The notes under the pieces were generated by a model. It had not been told where the DNA came from, did no database searches, and worked only from the letters and a program-made list of their open reading frames with translations. Shown here piece after piece: positions 897-64,000 of a DNA stretch of 64,000 nucleotides (position 1 is its first letter; the number at the start of each line of letters is the position of its first letter). The stretch covers positions 88,970,001 through 89,034,000 of the forward strand of contig OZ287750.1 in assembly GCA_965649765.1 (NCBI GenBank), given 5' to 3'. The DNA comes from Bispira polyomma. Its lineage: Eukaryota. The translations under genes and the position numbers were made by a program.

Positions 897-1864
897 CTAG
901 GGTATAGAGGAGGCAAAGGTGTGGGGAACAGCAGAAATGGCATCAGAATTTTGGTGAAGATAGGACCATACCTCAGATGACCTCCAAAGGCCATGGGCCA
1001 TTATGTTTTGAAGGGATACATTATTATTGAAGGCAAATATGGCCCCTGACCTTCTAAAAGTGTGAAACGTGTGTTCCTTAAGTGAAATACCTATGTGTGT
1101 AAGGAGTGTGGCCAAGGCTGAATGGACATGTGATTCTATAACTGGGAAATAAGGTGGTGATGAAGTAATAAAAAGTGGGGCCTCTGACGAAAGTGGCCGA
1201 GATTGTAATAGCTTTCTAAGGGCCCCTAATGGGCACAATGTTATATTTTTTAATGAAGGGATTAGTATCACATGGAATTGGGACCTATTTTGAAGGTTCT
1301 TTGCCCACTTCAAGATGAGGTGGGCGCCAGGGTGGCCAAAGACAATGTTCTTTCTTAAAAAGTGACGTGTTGGGTCAAATTTGGACCTTGAGTGTGGAGC
1401 TATATTTGAGATTCGGAGAAATCCGAAGAAAGCCACCATAAAGATTGCCCTGTATAGTAAAGGGTCACTGAGAATGTCACATGCTTTGGAAATAAGTATC
1501 AAATGGTGAATTTGGAAAATTCCCTTTGGGGAGGGAGAGAAAGGGGAGGTATGTGTTAGGCTTCTAGTGAATAGAGCCACAGTGTTATTCTGAAATATAC
1601 TAATGTCCCAGTTGAATTTGGCAGCCGTGTGTTTTAATGAAGCTATGTAATTGTTCACCATGTTCACAGATGAACCTGCCTGTATCAAATAATCTAGAAA
1701 AGAGATGAAAGAGTGAGTAGTGATGGTTTGTATTCCAGCATAGCAGTTAAAAGCAATGAAAGTTCTAAACTGGTTCTTGTAAGTTGCTGTGGTCTTAGGA
1801 CGAAGGGCACTGTTAATTCTCTGCCATGCTGATGCTGTGAAATTCTGAGTGACGTGGTTTTCAC
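897..1864 (-). CDS. Tyrosine recombinase of YR retrotransposon 1 (frame intact)
   Basis: AFFGFLRISN (catalytic R), HTFRRSGA (HxxR), AHGLWRS and WSYL (H/W and Y). The frame stays open upstream of the listed 1688 start (GENHVTQ...LRPKTTATYKNQFRTF) with no ATG. Confidence 0.93.
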
Positions 1865-1870
1865 CTGTAA

Positions 1871-2290
1871 TTATATGTTTAGACTTAGATTAAAATAATG
1901 CAATGGAATGTTCAGCCAAGTACATGAGTCCCTTATGATGTTAATCTGACCCTTGTGAGGTGGGTTGTCAGAGAATAACCGTGATAGCAAATCGGCTATG
2001 GTGGTCTTTTTCCCTTCAATATGTGTGATATCAATAGTGATGTCATAAATTGCTGAAATTAACCAAATGTTTTTCAAACAGAGTGCCAAGAATTCATCCT
2101 TAGTTTTGTTGGATTTAACTACTAGGACTACAGCCATGTTGTCACAGTGTAAGACTATGCGTTTATGGCTCCACTGCTCACCCCAGACCCTAAGCGTGAA
2201 AAGAATATTAAGCATTTCTATATGCACTATCGAAAGATTTCTATTATAAATGTTAAAAAATGGTGTGGCATACATTTGGTGAGCATATAT
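1871..2290 (-). pseudogene. DIRS-type RNase H domain of pol
   Basis: IVHIEMLNI, LHCDNMAVV and HIEGKKTTIADLLSR motifs. Confidence 0.9.
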
Positions 2291-2295
2291 TGCAC

Positions 2296-3140
2296 CTAAG
2301 CATGAATTACAGGTTTAATATATGTTATACCGTTATATTCCGGGAGAAATTTTACAAACCAAAGTAAATCCGCTTTCATATCTTCTGAAACCTTATAACG
2401 TTTGGCTCCGCTGTTGTTTCTGAATGCCATTAACAATCTGTTGATGAAAACCCTGGCAGGCTTAACACATTTGTGTATGTAAAGCAACTTGCCGAGTATC
2501 GACGCCACTGAGCCGTGGACCCAGCTGAACGCAACCGCAACCTGTTATTCTCAAAATGAATGCCTAATTTCATGGCGTCGACTGGGTCCACCCTCGGGTT
2601 TCGAAACGCGCGTGCCACGTCCAATTTGAAAATCTTGGGATTGTCTGTAATTCGAATCTGATCCACAATGTCGTCTATAGTGGGGAATTTTAAGACAAAT
2701 TCAATCCCGTCAAATTTCAGTTTGTCGACGTTATCATTCACCGAGCCATCTTGCGGATGTGAAAGGTTTAAAATAACACGCCTTTTGTCCTTATCTTTAG
2801 GTCTGGTCAGCAGTGGGGAGCAGTGAAACAGTTTGCTGTCTATTGTTGGACTAGGACGTAACATAGCTCCACATTGTTTCTCTTTATGTAAATATTTCTC
2901 AATAGCTTCCTTATGTTGGAGGGCCGAATGGTGATTAATTGTTTCCTTAACTTGTAAACTATCATTATTCTGTAGGGATAGAGGAAACCCAAATTTTATG
3001 TACTGGATGAGTAATTCATCTGGATAACCACTTAAAACCTCTTCCCAGGCCTGAACATTTAAACCTGAAACCAAAGGAATTCTAAATCTCCTATAATTAG
3101 GACATTCCGTGTCCTTAATTAAGTTTGCTATATCTGACAT
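2296..3140 (-). pseudogene. DIRS-type reverse transcriptase, internally deleted
   Basis: YIKFGFPL, CSPLLTRPK...RRVILNLSHP, FKLDVARAFRN and AVAFSWVHGS joined directly to SILGKLL...PARVFINRLL. The YxDD segment is absent. Confidence 0.9.
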
Positions 3141-4528
3141 TTGTTGTATAGACGTGATGTGTGATGTGTGATGTGAATTCGAAGTCAGTTTCTGAAGTGG
3201 TCAAGAAACCTCTAGTTTTATGGGGAAAGTTGACGTCCCTAACTGGGTAAGCATGCCTAACGTTGTCATATGAATCAATTTTCTGAAAGTTCTTGAAGTC
3301 GCATGACGCCGCCTTACCATTGTAACAGGGTTTAACTGTCTTGACCATTGCTGGTCTGTCATTACTGACTACATCAACTTTATTAACATTCAAATCTAGT
3401 AACAATTTGTCAATAATACCTATTATGTGTTCTGTGTAATTGACATTATGTTTATCCTTACAATTAATGTCTTTCTGGTAGTCATGCCAGGCATTTCTAG
3501 CCAACCTTTTGTCAACCTGGTCAACAAATTCGACCCCATAATTGCTATCTCTGTGTACCAGTAGTTGTATAGCATTCAATTATGTTGATGCAACCTGCTG
3601 GTGGATGGTCACATTTGAAATATTGGTTACATTGACCTATAATATTGTCCCCCAAAATATAAAATCCAGACAGTTCTGTCTGTTCACATTGTATGTGGGC
3701 CACAACTGAATTGTGGTTTCTTTCCGGTGTGTGATATAACCAATTGGTCACAGAGACAACAATTTCTATATTAGGCCCCTGAGGGCTACCATATCCAAGC
3801 TTGTGACTATCAACATTATTTAAACTTATGTAATGACTTTTAACTAGTTCCATGTTGTTACAATTACCTGCACCAGCAGTATAATTATCCGTTTGGATAT
3901 GCTCCTCATAACTCTAGTTCAGTTTATCTGTGTAAATACTATGGTTAGAATTATATTCAACCCCACTGGAATATTTCTTCCCCTTTCCCATAGCAGTGTT
4001 TTGAAAACCAGCCAAGTATTCGTCAGTATCATTACTGCACTCTGTGTTTGGGGAAAACCCAGACAGATCACTACTAGTGACTTTGTGCTTACAGAGCGTG
4101 ACAGCCCTGTTCTCCTTTCTGACCCCATCATTATACTGCCAGAGCTCAGTACCCATTACATTAGTGATGTCATTATGACCACAATCAGAATCACATTTGG
4201 TGTCAAATACAGTGTTAACTAAATTCTCTAAGTTAGTACCTTTTTCTACATGTATTTTAGCCGTACTTAACAAGTAAATATTGACATTTGAATCTAGCCT
4301 GTCATTAATCACTGTAACAGGTATTTGACTGACATTCTGTTCAGGTATATTATCCAACAAGTTCATATCAATACTAGCTTTAAACATGTTATTTACTGCT
4401 TTAACTGGTGATTTATCAGCCAGTTCACATTTTATTTCATTACATAATTTATTTGCATTTTCAACTACTAATAATTGATCTACTAATTTTACTTTTAAAC
4501 TTAAGCCTACTGTTAATAATTTGAGTTC
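3115..4528 (-). pseudogene. N-terminal extension of pol between gag and RT (unknown function, frameshifted)
   Basis: Chain of minus ORFs 3914-4387 (open from ~4528), 3545-3853 and 3115-3579 running into RT. No recognisable domain. Confidence 0.55.
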
Positions 4529-4553
4529 CTAGTCCTAGTAGTCGTCCTACGTC

Positions 4554-5750
4554 CTAGCGGTTAGACATCTGAGCCAGATCCGCCTGCTTGGCTGAATTAG
4601 CTTTGCAACATTGAAACTCCGGATGGTATACGTCTTTGTGTAAAACAGTGGCACAATGCCAGCAGATATGCTTGAAACCAGCATGATCAGACTTATGTAA
4701 ACACTTTCCCGAATTATACAATTTGCAGATCTTTGTAGCCCCATGTGTGCTGGGGGTCGAGCTAGTGGCCTTAGAGTTTGCCATAGCAAGTTGCGAAGCG
4801 CTGAGGCGATTGACAGCCCACTGTGTGCTATCACCCCACGCCAATCTTCCTTCTTCCACCTCCGTCATACTGGTGGCCCAGGCTGTCCCAGGGGAGTGAA
4901 GATGCGTCCCGAAGTGCCAAAATAACCTGTTGTATCATTTCTCTCGATATGGCGGTGTCCGTGACTTGTAGTGCATTGGCCAACTGGCCAGACGCCCACT
5001 GTGGTTGAGTTAAATCGTCAAAAATTGGTCACTTGCGTAAGGACCCGCCTGTCCACCCCTCATTCGCCCATCTTACTTTGGGATTACTTGTGGGAATGTC
5101 AGTGGCGTCAATGCCATCTGAGCTTGAAGGTTGTATTCGGCGAGTTTCTCATTCACCATAGCTTGAACGTCAGTGAGTGTCCGCAGTACATCGGCCTTCG
5201 GCACGATCCCGTCTGAGTTATAGGTTGAAGCACGGTGCAGCCCGGCTGCGTGTGCTGGTAGCTGAGCCGTGGTCCCTGTTGGCAACGCAAACTGAGGAGC
5301 AGTATGCTGTGAAACCATGCTGCTGACTGCACCTGTGTTAAGACCCATCGGGGCTACCGTAGGTAGTACTGGAATGCTGCTTGTTAAGGGAAATTGAGAA
5401 GCAGTACACTGCTGAGGCGCGTTTGAAGCCGACACCTGGATACTCGAGTCCCTTGCTTCTACACGGGCCAATCTTTGACCCAAGGCTGTGTTTGACTCTT
5501 CTAACTGTTTCAATATGGCCAACATCTGGGATGTACTATCGTCATGCACGGAAGGGTTGGTAACATGGATCCGAGTCGTTTCTGGGGATGCATGCTGTGA
5601 AGCCTGCGCGAACGGGATACTGAGGTCGGTAACTAAGCTGTCGTAGACATGGCTATTCTTACCCATTCTTTTAGTAGTGCTCTTCTTTGATGTCAACTTC
5701 TTAGCCTTGTTGTCTGTGGCTGGAGTTTTGGTAGTACGAGTTCTCCCCAT
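4554..5750 (-). pseudogene. gag-like ORF1 of YR retrotransposon 1
   Basis: Basic N-terminus, coiled coil (MLAILKQLEESNTALGQRLARVE), central VRWANE/FDDLTQPQW motif and C-terminal CKLYNSGKCLHKSDH..HICWHC finger. Frameshifted. Confidence 0.85.
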
Positions 5751-6139
5751 ATTGATACAATGAACACATAAAATATATAGTATAATATAAACAAACTAAA
5801 AACTAAAATACTAAAATCAAAGAAGCAATCAGAGCCTTCATTAACTTGGCAAAAAGATTTTGTGTGTTCATCTGTTGCTTCCTTATTCCAATATGGATGC
5901 CCAATGATACCCAAAGGTTAAACTTTTTTGGGGGGGAATGTCTCTGATTGGCTGCATGGTCACATGCTAGCCAAATAATAGTAATGCCCCTATTCGCCAG
6001 GGGTTGAGGTAGATGTTAATATTTCTGTTATGTGAACTGAATTAGCAGACCCCTTTTGGGTCGTGCTATACAAAGGCAATGTTTATATGTATGGCACATC
6101 CTTCAGACTCTTGTTCAAATATGTCATCACATCTTATTT

Positions 6140-11940: not shown

Positions 11941-12983
11941 CAAACTCTCCTCGTTCTTACGTTGTATCCCTGTTATTGTCCCACGTTATTTTTCACAAAA
12001 AACTCAGTTATGGCCTTAAAACTAAGTAAATTTATTATATATTTATAAATAACCTATGTGACCACAGTGTCATTATAGTAATGAAGTCTATGTTGACTGA
12101 TGAATATCAACTTGCATCTCTGATTATATTGGATATTGGAATACTAGGTTTGCTTTTTAAATCATGGCACCCACAAGATATCCAAAGAAAGAGTGATTTT
12201 GTTATGTTAACAAATTATTTTACAAGAGATATCATGCTTTCACTTTTTTAAGTGTTACTTACCAATGTTTTCTTTAATTTAATTTCATATAAAGACTACC
12301 TGTCGGCAAAGACCACATTTGTTTTATTAGACGAAGTAAATGTCAACCTACATCTGAAAGACTTCATCACAATAAGGGGAAAATACGTCCAGCTGTATTA
12401 CAAATAGGCTTTCCCAGTGTGACGCATTCTTACACAATGACTTAACTTACCTAACCAAGGGGAGGGGGGGAGGGGCTTATAAACTACAGAAAAAAAGAAA
12501 AGATTGCTTTGTGTTTACAAAAATATTTCTTCTTCCTCACATTGACCCCATTTTGCAGGCCAAATAATTATTCAAAGATACTGCTTTGAATTCTGAGAAT
12601 AAAAAAAAACTGTTCTGTTATTTTTAAAATATAATCTGTTTTCCTAAGAAAATAAGTTAATTATAATGTTATAGGAACATTTAAAAGGGTAAATGTTTTC
12701 ATTAAAAATAAACAATTCAATAACGTTTTAAAATCCTTTGTTTTAAAGTGTTTGGATTTGTGTATTGCATAGACATTTGGGGATTCTACGAGAGATGGGT
12801 TACTCAATTCTCCTGTACTTCTTTGTAATGTGAAAATTTATATTGCTTCAAGTACAAGATGTTCCACGATGGCTATTTGGTGACTGTATCATTTGTAATA
12901 AGCCAAAGGTCAACCATCAGGAAGTGATAGCTGCCCTAACCTGGACTTGAACATTGCTGCTTTGAAAGACCATCAACATGTCA

Positions 12984-13180
12984 TAACCCCTAAGTCAAAC
13001 TTTAAAACTTGTTAACCTTAAATTATAAACTCTTTAAGTTTGAATGTAAAAAATCTGGCAAATCTTCAAAATTAAACTCATTTGAGTTAAGGTGACCTTA
13101 TGCCCAAAATATTTTGCATTGTCTTACAACAGAATATAAACATTGCTAGTAGTAGATATTATATATAATAAAAATATTTA
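12984..13180 (+). repeat. ~200-bp direct repeat, copy 1 (copy 2 at 16180-16391)
   Basis: Shared gttaacct.aaattataaactctttaagtttgaa...tttgagttaaggtgaccttatg...cattgtcttacaac...cattgctagt.gtagatat...aaaatattta. Confidence 0.88.
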
Positions 13181-13393
13181 GGTTAGGTTATATTGGGACG
13201 GGTAGTTGGAAACGCTGGAGGAAACACTGCATACAGTTGATCAAGGTTCTGTACTGAAACCAGCGGCCCACAGTAAGGAACTACCGCCTTTCCCACATAG
13301 GCATCAACAGGATTCGAACTCACGCCGCCCAGAGGTGAGAGACCAGTGATTGTGAAGCGCAATGCTTGCTAACCACTAGGCCACCGCGGCCCC
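13181..13393 (-). mobile_element. tRNA-derived SINE family A, 3'-truncated copy
   Basis: Minus strand starts GGGGCCGCGGTGGCCTAGTGGTTAG (Pol III A box) and has GTTCGAATCC (B box). Near-identical copies at 45.4-45.7 kb and 60.75-61.02 kb. Confidence 0.92.
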
Positions 13394-13789
13394 ATAACTC
13401 GCTAAGTATCCATATAGCTAGTGAAGTATAATGATTGAAGTTTGAAAATAAAAGATACCAATTACAGAACCAAGTGGTTCAATTAAAAGTTTAAAGGAAG
13501 AGAGGTTAGGTGTGGGTGGGTGGGTGTCAATGCACTTTCCACCACCAACTTAAAATGCTAAAGTATGATTACATGTAACCATACACAGCCAAACACACAA
13601 CCTTGCTACCAACTATACACATAATAAGATTTGTGAGTTAAAGACAGTGGTTGAACTGGCCCCTGATTACTCATGACCTCCCTACACCAAGACACCTGAC
13701 CATACAAGGCCACACCAATCACCTGATGGTCAGACCATCCAAGCCATGCTTAAGCTACATACACATATTAAACACACTATTTTTAACAT

Positions 13790-14825
13790 TTATTAATATT
13801 ATAAATTTATTATAAATAACACGCTGTATTGATGCTAGGCATCTTCTAAAGCGCAATGGCAGAATCATTTATTCAATCGTAAAGTCCATGGCCATAGCAA
13901 AGTCGTAAGGAAAAAAGTTGGAGCATGTACTTGGGAAGCTAAGGTGGGTAGGCACCGTTAAAAAGATAGGTTTTAAGCTTTTTCCTAAAACTGATTAGTA
14001 TATCCACTGATCTGAGGTCAACTGGGAGTTTGTTCCATAACACGGGAGCTGCAAGGGAGAATGCTCTGGATCCCGCCTTTTTGATTGGTCTGACTGAAGA
14101 AACAGACCTCTCTTACGGTTACTGAAGGAGAGAAGGGAAGCAAGGTAGGAGGGCTGTTGAGTGACTACAGCCTTAAAAGTGGTAACATGAATCTTGAACA
14201 AAATACGAGAGCGAATGAGCAGCCAGTGTAGTTTTTTGAGGTAAGGAGTGACGTCTGTGCGACAACCCAGGCGAAAATAACCCTGCATAGATAGTTTTGA
14301 ATGGATTGGAGCTTTTTGGTGTGTGACTTGTATACTCCGAACAGGAGAGAGTTGCAGTAGTCAAGGCGGCTGCTAACAAGGACGCTATCGCTGTGTCCAT
14401 TGACAGGTGGTTTCGTATTCTTTTGATGTCGCGTATATGGTAATAGCAGGAGCAACAGATGTTAGTAATATGTGTGTCAAATGAAAAAGCTGAATCAAAA
14501 GTGACAACCAGGTTTTTTGGCATTTTCGGAAGGTAGTATGTCTTTTCCCAGAAGGGAGATGGAAAACAAAGATTTTAAGAATTCTTGTTTCCAATGAGAA
14601 TGAATTCCGTTTTGTCCAGGTTTGGTTTTAGTTTGAAGTAGTTCATCAGACAGTCTGCAAGTAGGTCAATACATGTGGTGTTTTATAATATGATTATTGA
14701 TGACAGTGCTGAGAGGATGTGTATAAAGGGTAGAGGCCCAAGGACGGATCCCTGAGGTGCTCCATATGGTAGGTTTATGGAAGAGGATAGGTGATCATCT
14801 AATTTAATTTTTTGTGCTCTATCCC
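13790..14825 (-). mobile_element. 5'-truncated L2-clade LINE (RT C-terminal part and 3' UTR)
   Basis: LPYGAPQGSVLGP, DKTEFILIG, SRLDYCNSLL, LKKLHWL and FRKKLKTYLF, frameshifted. Confidence 0.88.
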
Positions 14826-14945
14826 ATCCATCCTTACGACCTGGCTATATTTTTCATTTTTCTTTTGGCTGATTGATTCTGATGTTGCGCCTTAGAAGAT
14901 GCCTAGCATCAATAAGGCGCGTTAAAAATGTACAATACAATACAA
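14826..14945 (+). mobile_element. 3' terminus of the same L2 family in opposite orientation, with (TACAA)n tail
   Basis: ttgcgccttagaagatgcctagcatcaata matches the reverse complement of 13827-13856. It ends in tacaatacaatacaa. A similar tail lies at ~20030-20087. Confidence 0.8.
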
Positions 14946-16155
14946 AGTCTCTCCATCCAATGATACACTCCATAAGTGCTGTGGCTACTTTCAACTGGGA
15001 GTTGACCTTTATACTCTGGAGGGCGATATCTGTCTTAGATGACCAGTAAACATTTGTGGGGGAATACTTGAGTGTACATGTATGTACGTATTAACCCAAA
15101 TAGATTGTCTAGGTCGGCAAAGAGGTGAAGAAGGGTCCTAAGTTTATTCTTTAGCACCATCGCACGAAGTCTACCATCAAGAAAAGGTACTGAGGGCGAG
15201 TCACAGCAAATGGAGCTGTCAGCTTGCCAATCGTGTTTATGAGAGTTAACTCATTCATCGTCATGGACTGAGCTTTGATATATGGAAATATTTTGTTGGG
15301 AATGTTTTTCTCAGTGGCAACTTGGTATAGTGCATATTGAATGTGAGTTAGCAAAAGCCTCGTGCTTTATCAATTTTTGGCTCTTTCTCTTTGAACACAG
15401 CAACAAGGACTTCATCCTCAAGAGGAACAGAGTCAGTTTCCACTTTGTTTGTGACACCTTCCACTAAAAGTGACGTCATTGTAGAGATACCGAGGCACAA
15501 CTTTAGTCTCCAGTCGACTCCCTCAGGGAGGTCGTTTCTAATAAATTGCTTTATACTCTGTTGTTTCAAAGTTCTCGATAGTATAATTGCGGCCTGTCCC
15601 AACTGCCTTGTCGATTACTAGATCTGACCCCTCGACGAACATGTCAAAGTTCAACGTCTTTCCAAAAAGCAGGTTCTCAAAGTCTTTGGCTGACCAAACT
15701 GTGGAGCCTGGCTCATCCCATCTGTTTCTTTGCATAAAATCTAGGATATCCTGTCTCACAGGACCGGCCTTTTTAGTCTTAAGCCAAACTCGATGAACTC
15801 AATAATATTCCTTGAATACATAGCGGCCCATTGCAGACAATATAGAGGCAGCCTCAGGATCCACTTTTGTAGGCTTTTCCATGTATGTTATGAATGACTT
15901 ACAAGAGGTTCGAGAGTTGATCACTGGATAGCCCAAGGATTTCCAAAGCCCTGAGACCTCTAACCAGACATGGGCCTCCCAATTTGTGGCAACAGGGTTC
16001 AGCATGAACGCGCAGAGTTGAGACCACGTGAACTTACTTGCCTCCATCTCCATAGTAGAGACAAAAATGTTCTTTAACTCAACCTCTAGGTCTCTCAAAA
16101 TAACTGACGTGATGGCTGCAATGAGCTGACTAAAACATTTACACCAGTACATATT
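14946..16155 (-). pseudogene. Endogenous viral element: Mononegavirales L protein (RdRp) fragment, Nyamiviridae/Bornaviridae-like
   Basis: Consecutive L motifs across stops and frameshifts: SGLWKSLGYPVI; FGKTLNFDMF..SDLVIDKA; VFKEKEPKIDKARGF (premotif); LYQVATEKNI..KIFPYIKAQSMTM; VDFVRWC (motif A); DLDNLFGL..Y.YT..FP....I*DRYRPP...W-M-E (start of motif B). Confidence 0.9.
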
Positions 16156-16179
16156 GTACTCATGAATTTAAAGTTGGAC

Positions 16180-16391
16180 TTAACCCTTAAGTCTAACTTT
16201 AATATTGGTTAACCTAAAATTATAAACTCTTTAAGTTTGAACGACAACTTAAACATTTAGCCAATCTTCAAACTTAAACTCTTAAACTTATTTGAGTTAA
16301 GGTGACCTTATGTCACAAATATTTTACATTGTCTTACAACTGTATATAAACATTGCTAGTGGTAGATATCATATATATAATAAAATATTTA
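16180..16391 (+). repeat. ~200-bp direct repeat, copy 2
   Basis: Matches 12984-13180. Confidence 0.88.
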
Positions 16392-18024
16392 ACCGGATTG
16401 CTTGTCCTCTCTTGTTGGTTAAATGTATTCTGATCTGACCCTACACCGAGGAACTGTGTAAGCAAACGCACTAAGCATTCTCGGCCTTAGGTCTGGGGTA
16501 CCATTCTGATCAGTATTGGATGGATGGGTGAGTATATAACCCATTCCCCTTGGTGGGCTGCGTTCTCTTCAGATCTACGAGACATATGCTTGCGTGGTGT
16601 CCCCTTGTTACAACACAAATCTGGGTCCTGGCCGCTTTGTCTGCCTCTTTGTTAAGTGTTACCAGCTGATTGTTTATGAACAGTGATGGCAAACGATCAT
16701 GCCTGAGCTTGGTCCCTGTTTGTGTAGTGGTGTTGATATCTCTGGAGCCTCAGTATTGCTTTGGGCCTCGGTATCCCTTGGAGCCTCAGTATGTCTGGAT
16801 CTTGGATGATGTTTTCTCATGGAAAAGACCAAGACCTTATTGTATTGAATAGACTGTATGACTTAAAGACTATGCTACTCAAATTTCCCACCTAAGTGTT
16901 ATATCTAAGGTTAAGGGGTCATATTGCTCGACCATGTACGGTTTCTGGATAATTTTAGCTAGTAGGGAAATTGAGAACTTAAAACTCTGGGCTTCAGGAT
17001 GGCCGTCATAGTTACACAAGACGAATTAGTACCTGGGCTGAAGGCTGAATGTAATAAAAAGGCTGTACATATAAAAGTTTCTTTTAATTATGGTGCATTA
17101 TAGGCTTATATAGAAAGTACTAACGTCAGTCGTATTGATTTCTTTTCATAAGTGCAAAGAGTCTTATTCAGAAGGGAAACCAACCACTGATGAATTTTAT
17201 TTTACAGTATTCATAATGTTTTTTCAAAATTTTACAAATTAATACAATATAAGTTATTATGTACGTACCATGGTTATTGTATAAATCTTGTTATGAATAT
17301 ATACATTTACACGAATGGAGCTCGCATGCCACTACTGACGGGTTTGAGCCAAAGGGCATATACCCCACAACATCCAATAAATTGCAATTTCAAGTGCAAA
17401 AAGACAATCTTCATGCCACATTTATTTTACCCATATGGTAACTGTATTGGCAGCAGTTACAAGCAGCAGTTACAATTACATTATGATACTGTATATTATG
17501 ATATTTGAGATTATTTCAATATAATTATATACATATAAAATCTAACAGAGATATATATCACATAGGTCATTGATAATTAAACTGATAAAGCTATTAGTGG
17601 TTAAAATGTAAGTTCATCACAAATGTAATGTAATTGTAACAGGAATTTGGTAGAACTTGTTATTGCCATTGACCATTTTTATTAAAAAGTATTACACATT
17701 TCAAGTTTTACCAGGTATTTGTGTATTTAATTTTACTGGGTGAGCTGAAGAAGTGAAAACGGCTGAAACAAACTGAAATTGTTCGTGTGTAAATATAATT
17801 TTTTTTTTTATTTTATAATGTATGTGCAAAAAAGAACATGTTTTACAAATATAATTTCAATGACATGATATATAATACATTATATTGGTTCCTGTTCATC
17901 ATTTCTGATTACCATACAAACACAGATGCCATTGAAAGTACAAATTGAGCAGCTAGGCTGGATTATGGACATTATCAATGTTAATTAACCCATTTTCAGC
18001 CAAAATGTTATATTATGTTGTAAT

Positions 18025-18830
18025 GGACCATATTTAAAAATAGTCTTAGTCTTAACTTAGTCTTTAGCCAAAGATTTTTATTTTGGCCAAAAGGTTAACA
18101 TTTTGGTTATAGTCAAAGTTAGAGTAAGAAAACATATTTGGTCATGCCGTGGTCATACTGGCCTTACTTTTCGATTTCGAACAAAAAATGTCTAAAAATA
18201 GCACACGTAAGTGAAACGTAAGCATTTGCAACGTAGTGTGAACGTAGTGTACTTAAGTAAACATAAGCATGCGTGAGTAAAATGGTCCCTTAATGTAAAA
18301 ATTTCTAGCTGCACAAAATTTAGGCTCATTTGGGGCATTTTCGCTGATCTCAACTAAAACGGTTGTTGCGTTCACGGGTAACGTATGACACGTCTTCAAT
18401 GTGTATATTACTCAAAGTACGGCAGTAAGTTGTACTGTACAACCAAATAATATTCAAAATGAGGAGACAAGATCGAAACGTGTTTAGAAACGTGGCTAAC
18501 ATTTCAAAACGTGGCTAGCGATTCAAACATAATTAAAACGGCTATTAAAATGTGTTAAATGCATGTACAAATGTGTACATAACGTGTACAAAATGGCCCA
18601 TACATTAATTTTTTGTTATGTTTTCCAGAAGTTTTACTTCATTTATTTTTGTTTGCTTACGTTTAAAGCAAAGCAAACATAAACATGAACGTCCTCAGTG
18701 TGACCACGGCATTAGTGTTAACTTTGGACTTAACCCTAAGACTAACACTCAGAAGTCTTAAATATTTTAGACATAAATGTTAAGCTTCCAATTAAGTTAA
18801 GAATAAGACATTTTGTGAATACGTCCCCAG
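18025..18830. mobile_element. MITE family B (GTATTCACAAA-type termini), interrupted by a nested MITE
   Basis: Right end ttttgtgaatacgtcccc and a degenerate left end, with internal cttagtcttaac repeats. Relatives at 38259-38405 and 61374-61484. Confidence 0.55.
18144..18712. mobile_element. MITE related to family A
   Basis: TIRs atgccgtggtcatactg / cagtgtgaccacggcat, interior rich in aacgt repeats. Confidence 0.75.
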
Positions 18831-44189: not shown

Positions 44190-45442
44190 CCTTTTTAAGG
44201 TCATCTTAATTTTGTACATGTCTTTTTAAAGTTACCTTAACTTAATGTGAATTTTCGTATTCTGTTTCGTAGGTGTCCTTCAACTGCATTTAAGGTGCCT
44301 TTAACTTGTGGCAGGCCCTTGCCTGGTTTTGTTTGAGGTGACCTCAAACTGAGGAGTACCTACACTACATCCTACGTGACTACAAGCTAAAACTATTCTA
44401 TGTACACTGAGTATGAAATGTAAATATGTATATGATTACCAAACCAATTGTAGCCATATGTTATGTTTATTTCTGTTGTAGGTGAGTATGGAAAGCCCTG
44501 GCCACCAAACCTGCTGCTTCGGGAGTCTTAACCAGGTACCTCTAATCTTCTGAGAGCATGAAAGCCATACTCTGATGTACGTAACCCTAGTTTCCTTATA
44601 AGGTCGGATAGGATCTTTCTTACCTGATAGGCTGTGACTACGGTAGTAAGGTGGTTAGTTTTAAATTGGAACAGGGGGGGGGGGCCCTGTCTGAAGAAGA
44701 GGTGGGTGGGGTGATTCTTCTAAGAGCCTAGACAGGACATAAGAGGGAGCCTGGAAGTGATGGAAGCTGCACTACCTAGACCTGCTCTGAAACCTGCATA
44801 TTTTTGGGCCATTTTGTGAGGAGATGAGCCCCTAGGCCCCCCAAATGACATCCCTGGGGGTTGGAAATCTGGATGGCTTGAACTGGGAAGCTTTAGTTGG
44901 GAACAGTGTAGCTAGCCTAAAGAACCTGAAGAATCCTAACAGTATGATGCCTTATAAACCTCAGCCCCTGGGAAGTCTGTAATCTGTTAGATGAGTTCTG
45001 TCAATTTATTAATAGAAAGTACCCGTTTTATGTTGTATCTGAGGGGGCATTTAAGCATGAGTGTGATATTTTTATGTGGGAACATCTGTGTAGGGAAGCC
45101 GTATATCTGGAATGAGTGCTTAAGGACTGTCATGTACCCCTGTATGGTCTGTGCCTTAAACCCTTGCTGAGCTAAATACTCTAGAAACAATAGTACCGAC
45201 TGTAAGTCAGGAGGTTGATCTCCAAGTGTGACAGAAACGTTGTATATAGCCTGAATTTGGAATGGTAAGCTGTAGAACTTCTTGGCCTGAAGCCCGTTTC
45301 AACCCTGCCTTTGACATCTCTAAGTAGGTCCCTTGCAACTGGGTTACCTGCAATAATAAAATTGAATAATTAGGAAACAACCTTTCGGGATCAATGTGAA
45401 ACCATTGACAAATCTTCAGTTACTGAACTTCAGCTTTTTGAG

Positions 45443-45698
45443 TTTGAATTTAAATTTGGATATTTAACGTCCACTCTAGTACCTTTTAGTAGGTTATATT
45501 GGGACGGGTAGTTGGAAATGCTGGAGGAAACACTGCATACAGTCGGTCAAGGTTCTGCACTGAAACCATCGGCCCACAGTAAGGAACTGCCATCTTTCCC
45601 ACATAGGCATCGACGGGATTCGAACTCACACTGCCCAGAGGTGAGAGACCAGTGATTGTGAAGCGCAATGCTTGCTAACCACTAGGCCACCGCGGCCC
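45443..45698 (-). mobile_element. tRNA-derived SINE family A, full length, 12-bp TSD
   Basis: A and B boxes. Flanked by cagctttttgag at 45431-45442 and 45699-45710. Confidence 0.93.
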
Positions 45699-46207
45699 CA
45701 GCTTTTTGAGAGTTACAATAGTGGCCCCAACGCGAGAGTATATCTGCATATGTGTTATCAACACCACGTACATGTTTCCCGAAAATTTCTAAGTTATAAG
45801 CGGCTTGTATGAGCCATAATGTTCTTGCGCATGCGTTAATAAATGGATCTCTACCTTTGAACTTATTTAGGATGTGCACTACTGCCATATTATCGCAATG
45901 CATGTAAATTCTACTATTGGCTCATTTGGGTGACTATAACCTAAATGCCACTAAGATATTAAACATTTCAAATGGACTATGGTGAGATTGTTTTTATATG
46001 TTTGGGGAATTTCCACTGTGTATACTTGGTTATCCCAATATGCCCCCAAACTTTGTAAGGACGCGTCCACATATACCTTGTGGGCAGGAGAATTAACTTT
46101 GTATATGGCTGTCACCCTGTTGTATTGTTATAGGAAAACGCAAAACCAATTGACATCTTTCTGAAATGTGTCAGTCAATGTAGTAGTGAAGTGAGGGGGA
46201 GTGCCCC

Positions 46208-47105
46208 TTAATAATAATAATAATAAAAACATTCATATAACGCAAAATTGATAAAAATCCTCTAATGCGCTGAATTCCAAAAAGGGATTTTCCAGTATCA
46301 AGGCAAAGGTTGTTACCAAGTGAGCGCCAACCAAGAAGTACCTAAGGTGGGGGATATGCCAGTCTAAACAAGTGAGTCTTGAGCTGGCTTCAAAAACCTG
46401 ATAGTGTCTGCTGGGATCTGACATTTTGTGGCAACCTGTTTCATTCTGCCGGTGCCGCGACAGCAAAGCTGCACCTTCCAATTTTTCGTTCAGGGCGAAG
46501 TGAAACAGTCTATTTCCACGTGTGAGGCTGCTGGACTTGATTAAGGAATATAGGTAGGGAGGTTGGGAATAGTTAAAAATCTTGAAGACAAGCAGGTTGT
46601 ACTTGAAAAGGATGCGCTGTTCAATGAGAAGCCAGTGGAGTTTTTAAAGGTAAGGGGTGACATGACTGAATCTGTCAAGCCTGTAAACAATGCCTGTAAG
46701 TTTGGCAATATTAGCCTTTCTGACCCCATATAGTAAAGAGTTGCCGTAGTCAAAGCGACTACTGAACATAACATTTGCCACCAGAACTGCAATATCAGCA
46801 CTAAGAAATTTGTTGCAAGTCTCGTAGATGATGGTAACAGGCATGGCAAATCTTGGCAAAATAGTTGTTAAAGGAGTTGTCGGAGTCAAAGACGACACCC
46901 AGGTTTTTTACCTCCGCTGATGGAGTGATATTGTTTTGGAGGAATGAAATAGGGAATTTTGGTGTAAATGACTTTGTGGTCGGTGTGTTACCTATAATAA
47001 TAAACTCTGTTTTATCTGGGTTGAGTTTTAATTTTGCACAATCCATCCACTCCTGGACTGATTTAAAAAAGTCAGTGAGCTCAGCAATACCTGAGTCAAA
47101 GCTCC
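46208..47105 (-). mobile_element. 5'-truncated L2-clade LINE inserted in pol of YR element 2
   Basis: KLKLNPDKTEFIIIG, VKNLGVVFDS, SSRFDYGNSLLYG, SHVTPYL and a (TTA)n tail. Confidence 0.88.
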
Positions 47106-49042
47106 TGGAGGTTGATCGACCTTGTCCTGGTTAATGGGTAGACCGAGTTCTATTATTAGATATTTTAGGGACAGGAAGGCATTGTTAGCCTTACCTGGAA
47201 GCGCAGTACACCGAGACAATCATCTAAATACGAGCATATCCAGTGCCCCCTAGTATGCATGAGAAACGTGATACAATCCATGGCCATCTGGCAGGCGCAT
47301 GCGCTCAAAGCTAAACTGAAGAGGATAATTACGTTAACGTAATAATGACCTTTCCAATTTAAACCTAAGACTGTATAATCTTGGGGGTCACTGCTAAGGT
47401 TTCTATAGGCCTTTTTAAAATCTATTTTAATAGTAGGGCCTCTGAGCCAAGCAGGGCTATTTTGTCTACCATATTGTCAATGGTAGGGTATTTTAACTTG
47501 GTATGGCAATGTTAACACTGTTGCCCTTTGGACAAGATAAATCTACAATAATCTGTCTAGTCCCATCCAACTAAGGTCGGGTCATCATTGGAGAAACCTG
47601 TCACTTGGGGAAGGGGCTTTCGCCTAAGGGCCCTATTATGGCCTTGTACCCAATCTCAGTGTTTAATTAATTTTTCACATGTTCTGGAAATTTAACAGCT
47701 GACACGTGGTTTTTCACCTTTGGGTTATATTGAAAGTTCTCATAGTTGGGTGATGGGGGAAGCCATATTCAAGACATTGGCACACTATGTTGAAATGATA
47801 ATCTTGTAAATAGTTGTCCCACGCTTTAATATTAAGCTGTGAAGGGACAGGGACTCTAGCCCCTTTATAGTTTGGGATTTGTTGAGCCTCTGTGAGGGCG
47901 TGAGCTTTTGTGATCCACTTAACCATGTCAGTTTCACTGACCCTCTAAGCCACTCCCTTAAGTTGCCTTCCGTAAGTGAAGTATTGACTGTGCAGTCTCT
48001 TTTAATTACCAGCTGGTTGTAAAGGCTATTGTTTTCCCTTAATTGATTAAAGTCTATGCAATGGGACCTTACTCTAAACTGGCCTTGTTGTAAGGCTGTG
48101 CTTATACAACACGACTGGCATGTGTGACAGTCTGAATAGCTATCCCCTAACTCGCTATGAATTGACATTAAGCTATCGTCGTAACTAAAGCCTCTTGAAG
48201 TAGCCATAGTGGCTGTGTTTGTACTAGCAAAGGCTGAGCTTTGCCCTAAGTAAATCTCGTCGGGTTCTATAGTAAAACTTGTTAACCCAAAATTTTGAAA
48301 ATTTTGGTGTGTTTTGCTTTACCTGTGGGGGTAAATTTGATGACCATACAATGTTCGTGGGACCATGACACGGCTACCTTAACCCTTTGGTCCCCCTGTC
48401 TATAATGTCCCGACTAAACAAGCTTATTTGTACTTGTACCTTGCAATTCCTCGCGTGACGTGCCCTTATATAGTTGGCCAAATCTGACCTGAGAAGGTCC
48501 ATAGCAGGCAGTCCGTGAGACGTTTGTAGCCATTCAGTACCAATCTTGTCCGACCTCCGTGAGCTGAGAGAAGAGGTGATAGCACCGAGTCACGTTTCTC
48601 ATCCTGGCGAAGCATCCGTTTCTCTAAGTCATCAAATCTGTCCATAATGGTATCCAGTTTGGCTGCTACATCCGAGTTGCTTACCCTCCTCCAGGCCTCC
48701 TCAACTGAGAGGCGGCTCCACAGCCGCACTCAACCATGGCACTCATTGCCGCATCGGTGGCAGTCAGTGGAGCAGTGGAGAGAGAGGTATGATGAAGAAG
48801 AGAATACTAGAGTTCCCCGTCAAAATATATTCATTTGCCTTATTCACCTTTATACCAAATATTCACCTTTATAGAGAATACCAGAGGATTCAACAAAGTA
48901 CTAACAAGGTAGTAAGAAGGTAGGTAGGAACAGGGTAATAACAACTTATACACACCCATAAGGTGAAAACAACACCACAACAAATGTACTAAACAGTCCT
49001 CCACCCCATTCCCTTCAAAAGGGAATCCACTAACACCATTCT

Positions 49043-49763
49043 CTATTTCAATTCCCCTGCCAATCTTAAAAATGCCTCCGCATTAAGACAAGTGGTCCGT
49101 ATCAAAATCTAATTTTGGCCAATCTCTCCCCAACAGAGTAAATGTCACATGGAGTATTCTTATCAGTGTCCACAGCGCGGTTAGGTTGATACAGGGTGTC
49201 TGATTCAAGAAGAATTTGTTTCAATGACACTTCCTGGAACACTTGATCGTCCTTATGCGTGTTTCCATACAATAATTTCGGTGAAGCACCAAAGTACATT
49301 GCGGGAAACTTTGCTAGCCAATTCTTACAAATCTGTTTTCCCCCTGTGAAACAATGCAGATAAATGGGATGTGCTGATGACAAATTTTCAGACAAAATCT
49401 GAAGGCAATCGTTGTAAGCCTCACTACGGCACGCTCTATCCCGGCAATGGATGACCACAGGCAAACGACGCTTGTTTGCTATAAATAACCTTTCTTTCAA
49501 CAAGTCCTTCTGACTTTTCCTGTTATGATTCTCACTAGAGTAATCCAACCCAACTTCTCCAATAGCTACACCAGATGAAAACCGACTTGTTGCATTAACA
49601 GCATTCAAAGCTTCTTGACTGTACTTGTTGCACGTTTTCGGATGTACTCTGAAATTCTGGAAAACACGTGAACTGTTCCCCACTGGCTGTTTAACAGCTT
49701 GTTAATCAGATGGAAACTTTTCCGATCAAGCCAATCTGATACATGAGCATAACTATCAATCAT
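49043..49763 (-). pseudogene. TatD-family metal-dependent nuclease domain in Gypsy ORF3
   Basis: MIDSYAH (HxH motif, one change), F.VHPK, VAIGEVGLDY, PVVIHCR, IYLHCFTG, ILLESD and C-terminal TTCLNAEAFL. Two frameshifts. Confidence 0.92.
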
Positions 49764-50900
49764 CTCCCCATGTGAAGATGAACCAAGCGTTGATGCGGAA
49801 GGGTCACTAGCCAATCTCATAATCCCCACAGCATTCATAATAGCAATAACCATGTGCCAATGAGTAAGACTTCCCGCGCAATTTGGTGGTGAAATGGTAA
49901 TCCTACATCTGCGTTGTTCTCATTCCAAGGTGTGATGAACATTGTGGTTTCCTGTGACGGGTATGCACTTTGATTTTGACAATATTTCAATAATCCGTCT
50001 ATTCCTTCTACATTCAAATGTCCAGACAACTTCAATAGATAGTTTTAAATTAACTTCATGTCCAAGCATTCTCTAGCAAAGAATGCTGGCAAATGAGCAT
50101 TTTCTGCATGTATTTGCATCTTCTTCATTACTAATGTGCACCCCTTCACGATGCATTTTTTTCTGGGAGATAAGTTTCTTGCTACAGTAGGAATCACTAC
50201 ACCCTGTGCTTGTGGAAACAGTATTCTTGCCCTCTTCCCTGGTGGTTGCCTTTCCATATCAACAGGCAAATATGGATCCTCTTTTCTGTAACCTGACTCC
50301 TACTGTCCTAACTTATCCACATAACACGCATATCTTCGCTCGTTGTCTGCACACTCCCTCTGGTGAATCACCGATGCAGCCTACACCCTTGGATCGTCCC
50401 ATTCTTATTCCTGTTCAAAAGCCACACTATCATTAGGAGTACCTGTTCTGTCTAAGGTCACTGTCAAACGCTGTTGTTTCTGTTCTACTGCACCTAAATC
50501 CTCACCCGAACGTCCTGTGGAGATCCTTGGGGTCGCAAGTATGGGAGAAATTATACTGTCTGTAGTTGAGCTACTACTCTGCACACAACTAGTCTGTACG
50601 ACACCAGTGGACACAAAGGTCATCAAATGAGAAGAAGATACCACTGGCGCGAGAGTTGTAGTAGGTGAAACTATAGACTGTCTCGGAGTGGAAGTGTACT
50701 CAAAAGCAGGCGGGTTCCTCACCTCAAAGGGTGACCCTACAGCAGCACTGACAGCTGCGAACTCGGGAAGGACATAACCATATTCAGGTCGATTCACCCC
50801 AAAAGGTGAATCAACTTAAGTAACTCCTAACTCCTGTCATTGAAGACGTAGGCATAAAAACCTCGCTAGGCATAGTTGGTACAGCCATAACTTTGGTCAT
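49764..50900 (-). pseudogene. N-terminal part of Gypsy ORF3: S/T/P-rich region and a C2H2-like motif
   Basis: Minus ORFs 50405-50797 (S/T/P/V rich), 50045-50269 (KKCIVKGC-x9-H-x4-HLP) and 49835-50035 lead into TatD with no intron-like gaps. Confidence 0.6.
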
Positions 50901-51094
50901 CACCCCAGAAGGTGATGCCATCCAAAATGTAGGCAAAGCAGACACTAGAGCTGGAGCAGCAACAGGTATAAACGGTATTATTAATTAACCATCACCCAAA
51001 CCAGGCTGATTAGCACTAAATTTTTAGAGCTTAGATAAAAAATTAAATAATTCAACCAAAGATTGAATTAATTATGCAAACAATTTAACTTAAT

Positions 51095-52300
51095 TAACTA
51101 CAAGTGCACCATGCTTATTCTGTGTGTTGAGTCTATCATGATGCACTACCAATTCAGATTTTCGATACATAATAGGTGAACGTACCTTAGTCACTAAATT
51201 TTGACCTATTCACACATTTTGAAGTTTTGAACTTTGACCTATTTTGGAACTGGAGTTTATCTGATACACCAAATCACCCACACAATACACTGTTTGTAAC
51301 AATTTGATGTCATAGTCTCTCTTTTGTCGTAAAAGTCTGGTCTTTAGATTGTCTCTAGCAAAAGTATGCACACTTTGTAACTTTTGCTGTAACTGTTGCA
51401 CATATTCAGCTGGATTTTGCTCTCTAAGTTTCTGATCTGTTACCCCTAACATGAGATCTACCGGTTGTGTAGTTTCCCCACCTAGCATCATCATGTTAGC
51501 TGAATAATCTGTATGTCTATTCTGGGTAGCCCTAATGGCACCTGCAAGTAAATGCAAATCCTAGTCCCACACTTTTTGATTATCTTCAATGTAACACATC
51601 ATTCTTTGCAAAAGCGTTTTATTATATCTCTCAACTTGTCCATTAGAACTAGGTCTATACGGAGTAGTCCTAGTCTTGGTGATTTGTAATAGTTTACAAA
51701 CTTGTTGGAACAGATTTCCCTCAAAGTTACGTCCCTGATCAGTATGAACCTGCAATGGGCAACCGAATCTAGCAATAAAATTATCTACAATTGTCTTAGA
51801 AACAGTTTTGGAAGTTTAATCCGGAACAGGGAAGCATTGAAGCAACATTGTAAACTGATCTACTATCATCAGAATGTAAGCATTACCTTGATCACTTCGA
51901 ATAAAGGGTCCCAACATGTCAATGTGAACACACTCCATCGGCGTTCCTGCATGAAACAATTCCAAGGAAGCCTTAGACAGTTTTTTATTCATGTTACATT
52001 GTCTACAAGTCCTAATAAAATTCCGACAGTCATTCTTCATTTTGTACCATACAAAATTTTGTTTCAATTTGTCCAATGTCTTGTCCAATGACTTGGAATG
52101 TTATGTGATAACTAAAGTACTGGTCCTTTTAAGGTCTGAAGTACCATTAGCACATATCTCACATTATCAAATGGTTCATCCGGTACCCATTTGTAATACA
52201 AAATTCCATCCAAGACAGTGAGCAAAGAACGATTCAACCAATAGGACTTAGTTGCTGCACTACTGATTTGTATATGATAATCTAATGGGTCCTTGTAAGA
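51095..52300 (-). pseudogene. Gypsy integrase
   Basis: CRQC (HHCC half), VHIDMLGP, IVDQFT, VHTDQGRNFE, TTPYRPSSNGQVERYN, VGDLV...SSKL...VVHHDRL. Confidence 0.93.
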
Positions 52301-52488
52301 TTTTAACCAATCAAAAACTGGCTGAAGGTCATTGTTATTTTCTTGAGCAGATCTATTCTCATCCTTAGACAATCCTGGAAACCAGGGTTCTATCTCTAAT
52401 CTACTAATAGTTAAAGGGTCAGTTTTCATAGCTAATGGAACTACGTCATCTACTTCATCATTAAACCATCTCCATTGATTCTGTGCTC

Positions 52489-53720
52489 TCACACAATAAG
52501 AACAACCACCACAAGGCAATTAACTACTGCCCGAATCACAAGGCAATTTACACCTGCCCATTGAATAATAGTCATATCAAATTGAACAAGGTCCTGAAGC
52601 CATCTGGCTAATTGACCCTCTATATATTTAAATCGCATCAGCCATGCCAGACTGCTATGGTCAATCCAAACTACAATTTTTCGACCTAACAAAAAAATCT
52701 GTACTGATTGGTAAATTTCACTGTAGCCAAAAGTTCTTACGAGTAGTACAATATTTCTTTTGCTCAGGAGTTAAAATGTAACTTCCCTAACTGATCACTT
52801 TTTCCTGTCCATCCTGTATTTGAAGCAATTCTGCTCCAATAGCTTCATAAGAAGCATCAGTGTCTAACACAAACAAATCATGGTCATTGGGATATGTCAA
52901 TAAAAGTGCCGATGTCAATTGCTCCTTTAACTTGTGAAATGCCTTACTATGCTCTTCCAGCCAACGGAAATTCATGGTATTGACCTTACTACCTGTCAGT
53001 TGATATAAACAACGCGCTGTTTCGGCGAAATCTTTTAAGTGTTCACGATGGTAGTTCACAAACCCTAAAAACTGTTTAACTTCCTTCTGGTTAACTGGCG
53101 TTGGCCATTTTTGGATTTTTTCTATGCTTTCAGGATTCACTGATATTCCTTTACTATTTACTATTTTCCCCAAGAACTTAACCTGTTTTTGGAACAAAAT
53201 GCATTTCCTGGGCTTTAACCGGAGGTCAAAACCTATTTGCACATGCTCTAATAAGCCAAACCAGGTTATAAAGGCGGTTTTGTGCCGGCCTTTCTCATCA
53301 ATCACTACCTGCCAATATTCGGAGGCCATATCAAGTGTACTAAAGAAAATGCTCCCGTTGAGAATAGTAAGACAATGATGAATGTTAGGTAAGCCAAACG
53401 AGACTTTCACAGTTAATTGGTTAAGCTTTCTGCAGTTGATTGCATATCTAACTGAACCATCCCTTTTCCGTATTAACACTGGTGGCGATGCCCACTCAGA
53501 AGAAGACTCTTGTATAACTCCCGACTTAATCATGTTTTGAACACAAGTCTCCTCTTCCCGCTCAAAATTGATTGGAACTCGTCTCATCTGTTGCCTAACT
53601 GGTTTTGAGTCACCGGTATCAATTTGATGTAATATTTCCTGAAAACACCCTAGGTCATTATCATGTTTGGCAAACACATCAGAATAATCACCAAGTAAAT
53701 GTTTCAATTTATACTGTTGC
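52489..53720 (-). pseudogene. Gypsy reverse transcriptase and RNase H (RT lacks YxDD)
   Basis: SSEWASPPVLIRKRDGSVRY, FSTLDMASEYWQ, KTAF, LKPRKC..VKFLG, FLGFVNYHR, LDTDASYEAIGAEL, IDHSSLAWL..EGQLARW. Confidence 0.93.
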
Positions 53721-54199
53721 TCCTGGTTCAAATTAGAACATGAGTTTTTGTATAAATCCACTAGCTGTGGTGGAAGTTTTGATTCATCTAGCATTATTTG
53801 TCTTACTTGTAGAACTTTGCTAGTAGTCAAAGTCAGGTTGTCATTGTCAATGTCACATGAAGTGTCTTCAAATATACAATCTACTTCACAAGCAACTCCC
53901 CAAAGGAGTCCCTTTTTCAAATATACATACTTATCTAAGTCATTAACTATTTGTACAACAACTGTAGATGATCCATTAATCAAGCAATATGGTGCAAGCG
54001 CTTTTTGCTGAAAATTAGTATAAGCCGGTTGCAACACAAAAGTACTACCAGGACTATCCAAGTCAGTAGTTACACCCACAATTGTAACTGAACATGGTTA
54101 CAAAACAACTTTCTTTGCTAAACATACATGACTAACTTTAAACTGCTCATTCAATTCATTCTTAATCAAACTTATCGGTAACTTTGTATCACTAACACA

Positions 54200-54577
54200 A
54201 GTTTTTTTCCAAGCCTATTGTTACCTTGTGTTTCAACAAGAAATCCAATCCAAGCAACAAATCATCATTAATATCAGCGACATATAAATCATGCACATAA
54301 TTTGTTGTCCAATTCGCAACGGCACTTTTTCAATTATATGAGCTGACATATATTAATTTTTTCCAGCATATTTCAAACTCACCTCTTTACTCAGTGTTGG
54401 TAACCCTTCTTTTATCTTTATGTACAAACTTTCACTTAATACTGTTACCTGTGCGGCACTGTCTACTACTGCATGAAACTGATATCTACCTATTTTAATA
54501 GGTATCATTACATTATTTACAGATTTACCAGTTGTGTATTGCACTTCCTTAATACGCTGTTCTGATTGATGGTTCAT
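54200..54577 (-). pseudogene. Gypsy aspartic protease
   Basis: AVVDSAAQVTVLS active site, with DDLLLGLDFL downstream. Confidence 0.88.
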
Positions 54578-54588
54578 TTTTGGATCAT

Positions 54589-63476: not shown

Positions 63477-63503
63477 GTGGCCACTGCAGCAGTGCAGTGG
63501 CTA
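63467..63503 (+). promoter_or_regulatory. Candidate -1 ribosomal frameshift signal (slippery heptamer plus hairpin)
   Basis: A_AAA_AAC in the gag frame right before TGA, then stem tggccactgca-gcag-tgcagtggcta. The -1 frame is open to 63904. Confidence 0.7.
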
Positions 63504-64000
63504 GAAAAACCCAGACTAATTCTAGAATTGTATATAACTCTAAGTTTACTGATTTTAATTTGTATGACAATGTGTGTTTTAACCCCCATACATGTATTAA
63601 ATCAAGTGTGAAACGTTCCTACCGGGACGTGTGTGAACAAGGGACAGGTAGTATTCCAACGAGTGTTACCAAAAAACCCACTGTGGGCGAAATTGGGAGA
63701 ACTAGTGAAGTGACAAAACCCCCTGTTAAAGTTACCACCAAAACATTCTCACGAATGCGGGTCATTGGAAAAAGTAAGAGGGGCCCAAATTGCAATGTAA
63801 ACAAGCCTTCACTTTCTCCTAAACCACTTAGTAGCAAGGGTTCGTGTCCAGCAAGACAAAGGAACTTTTATTGTTATTGGACGTGTCAAAAACAACTCAA
63901 TTAACTTGTTCCACAAGAATCATTCCCCCCACTTGGTAAAAAGGGGGCCTGCATTGTCCTCCATTGTAAAACCACTTAACTGGGGCGGTGGCAGAAAGAA

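Follow-up and report, generated by a model that had tools for sequence, protein, structure and literature searches.

A decayed nyamivirus L-gene fragment of the Berhavirus clade in an annelid genome

Introduction

Members of the Nyamiviridae have a negative-sense genome of 10–13 kb with N, G and L genes, whereas the locus described here holds an L fragment alone. Nyamivirus-like endogenous viral elements (EVEs) are known from the isopod Armadillidium vulgare (PMC4231630) and from Lepidoptera (PMC12548735), and they share features with the case described here, namely the same viral family, stops and frameshifts, several independent insertions and the lack of obvious target duplications. The isopod elements were grouped with nyaviruses and a nematode virus, at a time when berhaviruses did not yet figure in that paper (PMC4231630). 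Those hosts are arthropods; the host here is an annelid with clear retrotransposon chimeras at other copies. The words "annelid" and "polychaete" are absent from the main text of the Lepidoptera paper (PMC12548735). No published EVE of the nyamivirus kind from an annelid or polychaete was found in a literature search that covered mainly paper listings, largely from non-subscription journals, supplementary tables of large virome surveys aside.

EVEs captured by LTR elements in Aedes aegypti (10.1101/127498; PMC7161354) resemble two companion loci of our fragment, the L relic on contig C9 and an N-like locus on contig C3, in that viral sequence lies in a same-strand Gypsy element. Unlike those of the mosquito, our fragment adjoins an opposite-strand DIRS repeat and a LINE tail and is not part of a dense EVE cluster. 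Endogenous bornavirus-like L elements (EBLL; PMC4865735) are likewise L-gene relics of a related mononegaviral family. Our fragment differs from them in not being bornaviral (19–22% identity; approximately unbiased (AU) test, p = 0.001) and in its broken reading frame.

The best named match, Beihai rhabdo-like virus 3 (Berhavirus sipunculi), is of the same clade as our copy, which is endogenous and broken. Sipunculids are annelids. Together with echinoderms, they are hosts of berhaviruses (PMC10010136), and free-living flatworms are included among the hosts in two further papers (PMC12282299; PMC9241645). Nuclear replication has been reported for Nyamanini virus, not for berhaviruses (PMC10010136).

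Results

The L fragment and its decay

The window, i.e. the whole analysed stretch of 64,000 nucleotides (C3:88970001-89034000), lies on a 104-Mb contig of an assembly of 1.035 Gb in 75 contigs. This genome is that of an annelid and probably of a sabellid polychaete (fan worm). Among the named matches to its cytochrome b, a sabellid polychaete ranked best with 75% identity; of the 120 matches listed out of 8000 scored, most other named ones near the top are annelids with 63–69%, interspersed with a beetle, gastropods and fishes. Its mitochondrial genome (C75, 15,503 bases, invertebrate code) carries genes on both strands, which is unusual for annelids.

A sequence-only reading of the window had described a nyami/borna-like polymerase fossil at 14946..16155 with ordered L-protein blocks across stops and frameshifts. 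A decayed piece of a mononegaviral L gene of ~1.2 kb is indeed present on the minus strand (Table 1). It ends at ~16139 and not at 16155, since a host repeat begins at 16140. All motifs named in that reading were mapped by six-frame translation, in the order of an L protein and in three minus-strand frames. The four frame pieces are separated by three frameshifts (near 15465, 15331 and 15154) and contain 5 stops in 384 codons. The codon before DRYRPP is a stop, in line with the brackets that had been put around the Q there. The motif map gave no match for the catalytic GDN motif in the fragment, which stops at the WME block, ahead of GDN. As it ends before this motif, which the C9 copy keeps, the fragment is unable to encode a polymerase.

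Homology was verified by profile and translated searches, as had been proposed. Frame piece 1 matched PF00946 with an E-value of 2.1e-7 (profile positions 324-468), and two later pieces gave weak but colinear matches (542-576, E 0.094; 619-674, E 0.085). The 50-residue piece alone and three frames of the left flank showed no Pfam match. In tblastn, the best alignment to the L protein of Beihai rhabdo-like virus 3 reached 176 bits, whereas none of 200 shuffles exceeded 32 bits. The L protein of a bornavirus scored 41 bits and that of a lyssavirus 22 bits, the latter inside the shuffle range. In the coordinates of the L protein of Beihai rhabdo-like virus 3, the fragment covers residues ~228-630, with the tblastn alignment extending to 643.

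The fragment had also been called GC-richer than its flanks. This is correct for the right flank (0.43 against 0.365; window 0.36), but the contrast is modest, as the left LINE has 0.408 and 21 of 314 sliding 1.2-kb intervals are equally GC-rich.

Table 1. Viral relics, L-protein motifs and flanking repeats. Plain positions refer to the window, positions with a C prefix to the contigs of the assembly
Feature	Position	Strand	Basis or remarks
Endogenous nyamivirus (Berhavirus-clade) L fragment, pseudogene	14946..16139	-	tblastn, Pfam, tree, motif map
Frame piece 1, GYP and DKA blocks	15472..16139	-	stops 15801, 15540, 15525
Frame piece 2, KEKE.K and ARGF	15339..15458	-	stop 15350; bounded by the frameshifts near 15465 and 15331
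Frame piece 3, LYQV, SMTM, DFVRWC	15154..15330	-	frameshift near 15154
Frame piece 4, LDNLFG, DRYRPP, WME	14951..15145	-	stop 15037
GYP	15933-15925	-	motif map
DKA	15612-15604	-	motif map
KEKE.K	15392-15375	-	motif map
ARGF	15365-15354	-	motif map
LYQV	15330-15319	-	motif map
IFPYIKAQSMTM	15291-15256	-	motif map
DFVRWC	15171-15154	-	motif map
LDNLFG	15112-15095	-	motif map
DRYRPP	15034-15017	-	motif map; stop codon directly before
WME	14959-14951	-	motif map
3' end of high-copy LINE with short TACAA-type tail	14825..14945	+	abuts the truncated 3' end of the fragment
Decayed, 5'-truncated LINE reverse-transcriptase end	13801..14830	-	tblastn with LINE proteins; adjoins the plus-strand LINE tail in opposite orientation
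Terminal-repeat region of a DIRS-group retrotransposon	16140..17318	+	at least 79 matches (40 of 350 candidates scored)
Second partial copy of the DIRS-associated repeat	12984..13180	+	83%; left of the LINE pair
L relic, ~residues 446-1660	C9:5618342-5621972		GDNQ and capping domain; same virus clade as window copy
L relic, capping region onward	C1:82858915-82860603 (L009:1336-3237)		634-codon stop-free frame; 67% nucleotide identity to C9
Complete Gypsy LTR element with N-like gene	C3:82664756-82672237		LTRs 98.0% identical; 4-bp target duplication
N-like relics in near-identical 20-kb blocks	C2:345924, C10:57628768, C13:34541140		near contig ends, each beside a Gypsy integrase
N-like relic	C4:3290215		40% identical; adjoins an LTR of the family of the C3 element

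Viral family and clade

With frame piece 1 as query, a word-based search returned no homologue among 558 candidates and a PDB sequence search returned just two weak, unrelated matches. Relatives were therefore reached with the better-preserved C9 relic, which has a 466-codon open frame. Nyamiviruses ranked first among its 111 matches (best: Beihai rhabdo-like virus 3 with 45% identity), and Logan proteins were also found. When searched back against the window by tblastn, 38 proteins from a first set of 111 and 137 from a later set of 257 matched, all of them at the fragment locus. Beihai rhabdo-like virus 3 L was the best named match (E 1e-55 in a small database) with 38.9% identity over 378 columns. 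The Logan/ENA proteins are closer to the fragment than this virus, with 40.4% for P0248 and P0112 and 50.5% over 220 columns for P0255. Identities were 25–34% to most other nyamiviruses, 22–23% to named tapwoviruses and 18.9–21.7% to three bornavirid L proteins.

The main tree was calculated under LG+G4 from 32 of 50 rows and 1147 columns, of which the window row fills only 33%; 18 rows with long branches or near-duplicates were dropped, and named crustaviruses are absent. The fragment was placed inside the Nyamiviridae with a support of 97/98 and the Bornaviridae lay outside. It grouped with the C9 copy (100/98), then with P0255 (100/99) and then with two Logan proteins (99/97). A clade supported by 100/99 comprises the fragment, Beihai rhabdo-like viruses 3, 4 and 5, Girado virus 3 and Macroli virus. 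All five viruses are listed as Berhavirus species in the 2024 ICTV update (PMC12282299). In AU tests, for which 31 of 50 rows were dropped, forcing the fragment together with the bornavirids lowered the log-likelihood by 68.9 (p = 0.00114). Grouping it solely with P0248 and the three Beihai viruses was compatible with the data (p = 0.086), which leaves room for more than one branching order within the genus. In a quick tree from the fragment's own 400 columns, the bornaviruses fell within the Nyamiviridae at an open fork, while the nearest relatives of the fragment were unchanged.

The fragment thus belongs in the Berhavirus clade of the Nyamiviridae, an assignment made for a fragment, while formal ICTV demarcation uses the complete genome. 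Of the nyami/borna-like affinity suggested before, the first half was retained; a bornavirus origin is rejected by identity, by the tree and by the AU test. The suggestion of an undescribed virus lineage in an invertebrate was borne out, because the fragment is only ~39% identical to Beihai rhabdo-like virus 3.

Outside this genome, the nearest relative of the window and C9 relics is P0255. P0002, P0253 and P0255 are nyamivirus-like L fragments on ENA contigs of 69-743 kb and probably EVEs in other genomes.

Flanking repeats

On its left, the fragment abuts the 3' end of a high-copy LINE, which we take to be L2-like. This end was recognised by an inverted self-match (13817-13867/14874-14924) and by matches in L104; behind 14945, contig depth is very high and contig ends are loose. 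The decayed LINE next to it is 79–83% identical to its closest other copies among those compared. The repeat on the right is presumably of the DIRS group. Both labels are drawn from element anatomy, with support from tblastn to window proteins that have Pfam reverse-transcriptase/integrase matches. In 3 of 7 copies, remains of a DIRS reverse transcriptase and recombinase directly precede the repeat in the same orientation. In 5 of 6 other copies compared, similarity extends further to the left than the 16139/16140 junction, so the viral fragment joins the repeat internally.

With 9 queries, the 6 kb on each side of the fragment showed no continuation of L (best E 0.11), which leaves the idea of a LINE splitting a longer L relic unsupported. 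The stretch 16400-16860 was considered as viral or Penelope coding sequence and rejected, as it is part of the DIRS-associated repeat. Rfam gave no match in 12000-18500. A very high-copy short repeat of ~210-250 bp at 13183-13393 is SINE-like by size and copy number. Further DIRS-type remains occur in the window at 897-5795, 44987-47476 and 62856-64000, the first fairly intact with a tyrosine recombinase frame. At 49102-56518 and in the C9 region (L005:2476-8813), Gypsy sequence is followed by a TatD DNase gene on the same strand, which suggests a TatD-carrying family.

Companion loci

Searches with two full L proteins, the second stricter at first pass, revealed three L loci in the genome, namely the window, C9 and C1. 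At C9, the L sequence is fused in frame to LINE sequence comprising ORF1 and the initial 20 codons of ORF2, and at its 3' end the relic passes into same-strand Gypsy sequence with a gag knuckle, a protease and a reverse transcriptase. The relic and ~30 bases of the LINE junction are carried by read contigs in both of two runs. The LINE is 95–97% identical to 39 other copies among those listed, and the C9 insertion is therefore young. The C1 relic adjoins a tandem repeat and is bracketed by an exact direct repeat of 56 bp, with one copy immediately ahead of the relic and the other 1.2 kb beyond it.

Five loci with N-like relics were detected with Pfam PF06407, the bornavirus N family (E 6.5e-11), and a follow-up search. 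They may stem from the same viruses as the L relics. The cleanest capture in the genome is the C3 LTR element, in which the integrase precedes the reverse transcriptase and the N-like gene replaces part of pol while keeping the frame; copies free of N have ~300-350 bases of pol at this position. The C2/C10/C13 triplet was considered as a transposing N-carrying element, which was rejected; as its similarity spans nearly all of the 20 kb fetched, near contig ends, it fits segmental duplication. A protein atlas search with the N-like protein gave no usable match. The search for glycoprotein (G) relics gave no match, and its positive control likewise matched nowhere.

Route of entry

The fragment is a dead, single-copy L piece of a Berhavirus-clade nyamivirus. 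It was likely copied into DNA by the reverse transcriptase of a host retrotransposon, passed on in the germ line and then eroded. A berhavirus-like virus would have infected germ-line cells, where a host reverse transcriptase would have used retroelement RNA and viral RNA as template by switching from one to the other. The chimeric cDNA would then have integrated, and a later LINE insertion or deletion would have removed its 3' end, with stops and frameshifts added by neutral mutation.

Capture by a reverse transcriptase is likely at the window because both ends abut retroelements, the LINE tail and the DIRS repeat. The latter has the polarity of the viral genomic RNA, and a change of template to this negative-sense RNA would agree with that. 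For Aedes chimeras, the accepted explanation is that the reverse transcriptase of a retrotransposon switched templates (10.1101/127498), and such chimeras occur elsewhere in this genome at the C9 L relic (LINE/Gypsy) and the C3 N-like LTR element. By analogy with both, the same process is likely at the window. It is less certain here because the neighbouring elements lie opposite to the viral coding strand, so that genomic RNA would have to be the template. In this they differ from mosquito LTR–EVE pairs, for which that study gives a same-polarity rule (10.1101/127498). As no target-site duplication was found at the window locus and the original viral ends are not identifiable, the locus does not by itself establish the entry route.

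These same features would suit a repair event, in which viral cDNA was ligated into a break in a pre-existing DIRS repeat and the retroelements are mere neighbours. The junction is internal to the repeat, a target duplication was not detected and the elements on both sides run against the viral coding direction. Moreover, transposable element (TE) remains make up 7.5–29% of control blocks, so adjacency is common, and isopod EVEs likewise lack obvious target duplications (PMC4231630). Against repair stand the two other viral relics, which are precise chimeras within retrotransposon reading frames, and a host reverse transcriptase is required under either route. We regard repair capture as possible but the less likely course.

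Orientation of neighbouring elements and small-RNA function

The fragment is expected to have no protein function and could at most be the source of putative antisense small RNA. In 264 kb around it (C3:88870001-89134000), coding TE remains detected with a query library drawn from the three EVE regions were strongly skewed, with 23 on the minus and 6 on the plus strand (binomial p = 0.002). Eight control blocks of 50 kb contained 15 plus and 21 minus in total, and one of the eight was skewed (1:6). The C9 region (2:7, p = 0.18) and the C1 region (5:3, p = 0.73) lean to the strand of their relic, but not significantly. Coding-TE cover around the window was 16% and thus not raised compared to the controls (7.5–29%). 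No second viral match was found in the window by tblastn with the L relatives.

The skew, whose majority strand is that of the fragment, is what would be expected if the locus were a working antiviral memory, i.e. a one-strand piRNA cluster whose antisense products would act against berhavirus-like infections, in the manner of Aedes. Co-oriented TE–EVE hybrids mark the flamenco-like cluster of Aedes (PMC7161354). Earthworms possess somatic TE-derived piRNAs and a probable EVE of the dog whelk yields antisense 5'U small RNAs (PMC6085071). However, TE coverage lies within the control range, one control is skewed too, the C9 and C1 regions are not significant, and the region yielded a single viral relic. 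The strand skew could also stem from a long host gene and its introns. The ~31% nucleotide distance to the nearest related copy would, in addition, make for a poor target match to a current virus. Antiviral memory at this locus is thus improbable. Equally doubtful is its broader form, in which the berhavirus-like clade would have been captured repeatedly and in part recently by LINE, Gypsy and DIRS elements and the relics used as heritable piRNA memory.

Separate captures

The window and C9 relics are sisters in the tree and overlap by ~556 aligned bases, with 68.5% nucleotide and 74% amino acid identity, and the N-like triplet demonstrates that viral relics do get duplicated in this genome. 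A single capture followed by host duplication could thus be imagined. The differences between the two, however, are distributed over the codon positions as 41/26/108, with a pS of 0.83 and a pN of 0.17 (180 codons), and this pattern already contradicts duplication. Third-position bias together with synonymous saturation indicates divergence under purifying selection in viruses and not decay in the host. The LINE at the C9 junction is too young for synonymous saturation to have been reached within the host, and the flanks of the two relics share nothing beyond one common short repeat. Duplication is therefore very improbable, and the window and C9 relics come from two viruses that were captured separately.

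The C1 and C9 relics differ by 37/19/139 over the codon positions (204 codons), and by this pattern the source of C1 is different from that of C9. The window and C1 relics could share a source virus, since they do not overlap. With a terminal branch of 0.35 compared to 0.15 for C9 in the main tree, and with more breaks, the window copy is probably the oldest.

Presence in the host chromosome

The 1.2-kb fragment is single-copy in the assembly, and all of its sampled words were present in three public sequencing runs, none of them recorded as RNA. In each of the three, one contig spans 14919/14921-16692 with zero differences. The depth of these contigs was 17.9, 13.6 and 72.8, compared to 13.7–18.1, 14.3–14.4 and 47.8–97.4 for adjacent unique contigs. 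Junction-spanning reads had been named as a check on the earlier reading. At the right junction, ~550 bases of host repeat are bridged at single-copy depth in all three runs, whereas at the left the contigs cover 25–27 bases of the high-copy tail, below the 31-base threshold. The fragment sequence was identical across runs of two sample codes from one study. As all runs come from this study, possibly including the source of the assembly, the read support is not independent.

That the assembly is chimeric here, or that a live virus contaminated it, for which the left junction without a formal bridge and the single study leave some room, is scarcely credible given the stops and frameshifts, the difference-free entry of the contigs into 550 bases of host repeat in three of three runs and the position on a 104-Mb contig. 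With viral homology within chromosomal DNA and decay of the pseudogene type, the fragment is a non-retroviral EVE.

Discussion

Berhavirus-like nyamiviruses are known mainly from the sequencing of marine invertebrates and flatworms. The relics described here are genomic proof that they infect polychaete annelids and reach the germ line, and they reveal a clade not described before, which comprises two related viruses at the least and probably three. Taken alone, the window fragment is an ordinary dead relic; its weight comes from the new host group and from the companion loci. The latter are unusually clean cases, from a host that is not an arthropod, of RNA-virus genes captured by retrotransposons, and through them it becomes testable whether annelids have a piRNA defence derived from EVEs. 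If the fragment and its companions did act as piRNA memory, EVE-based immunity would extend to annelids.
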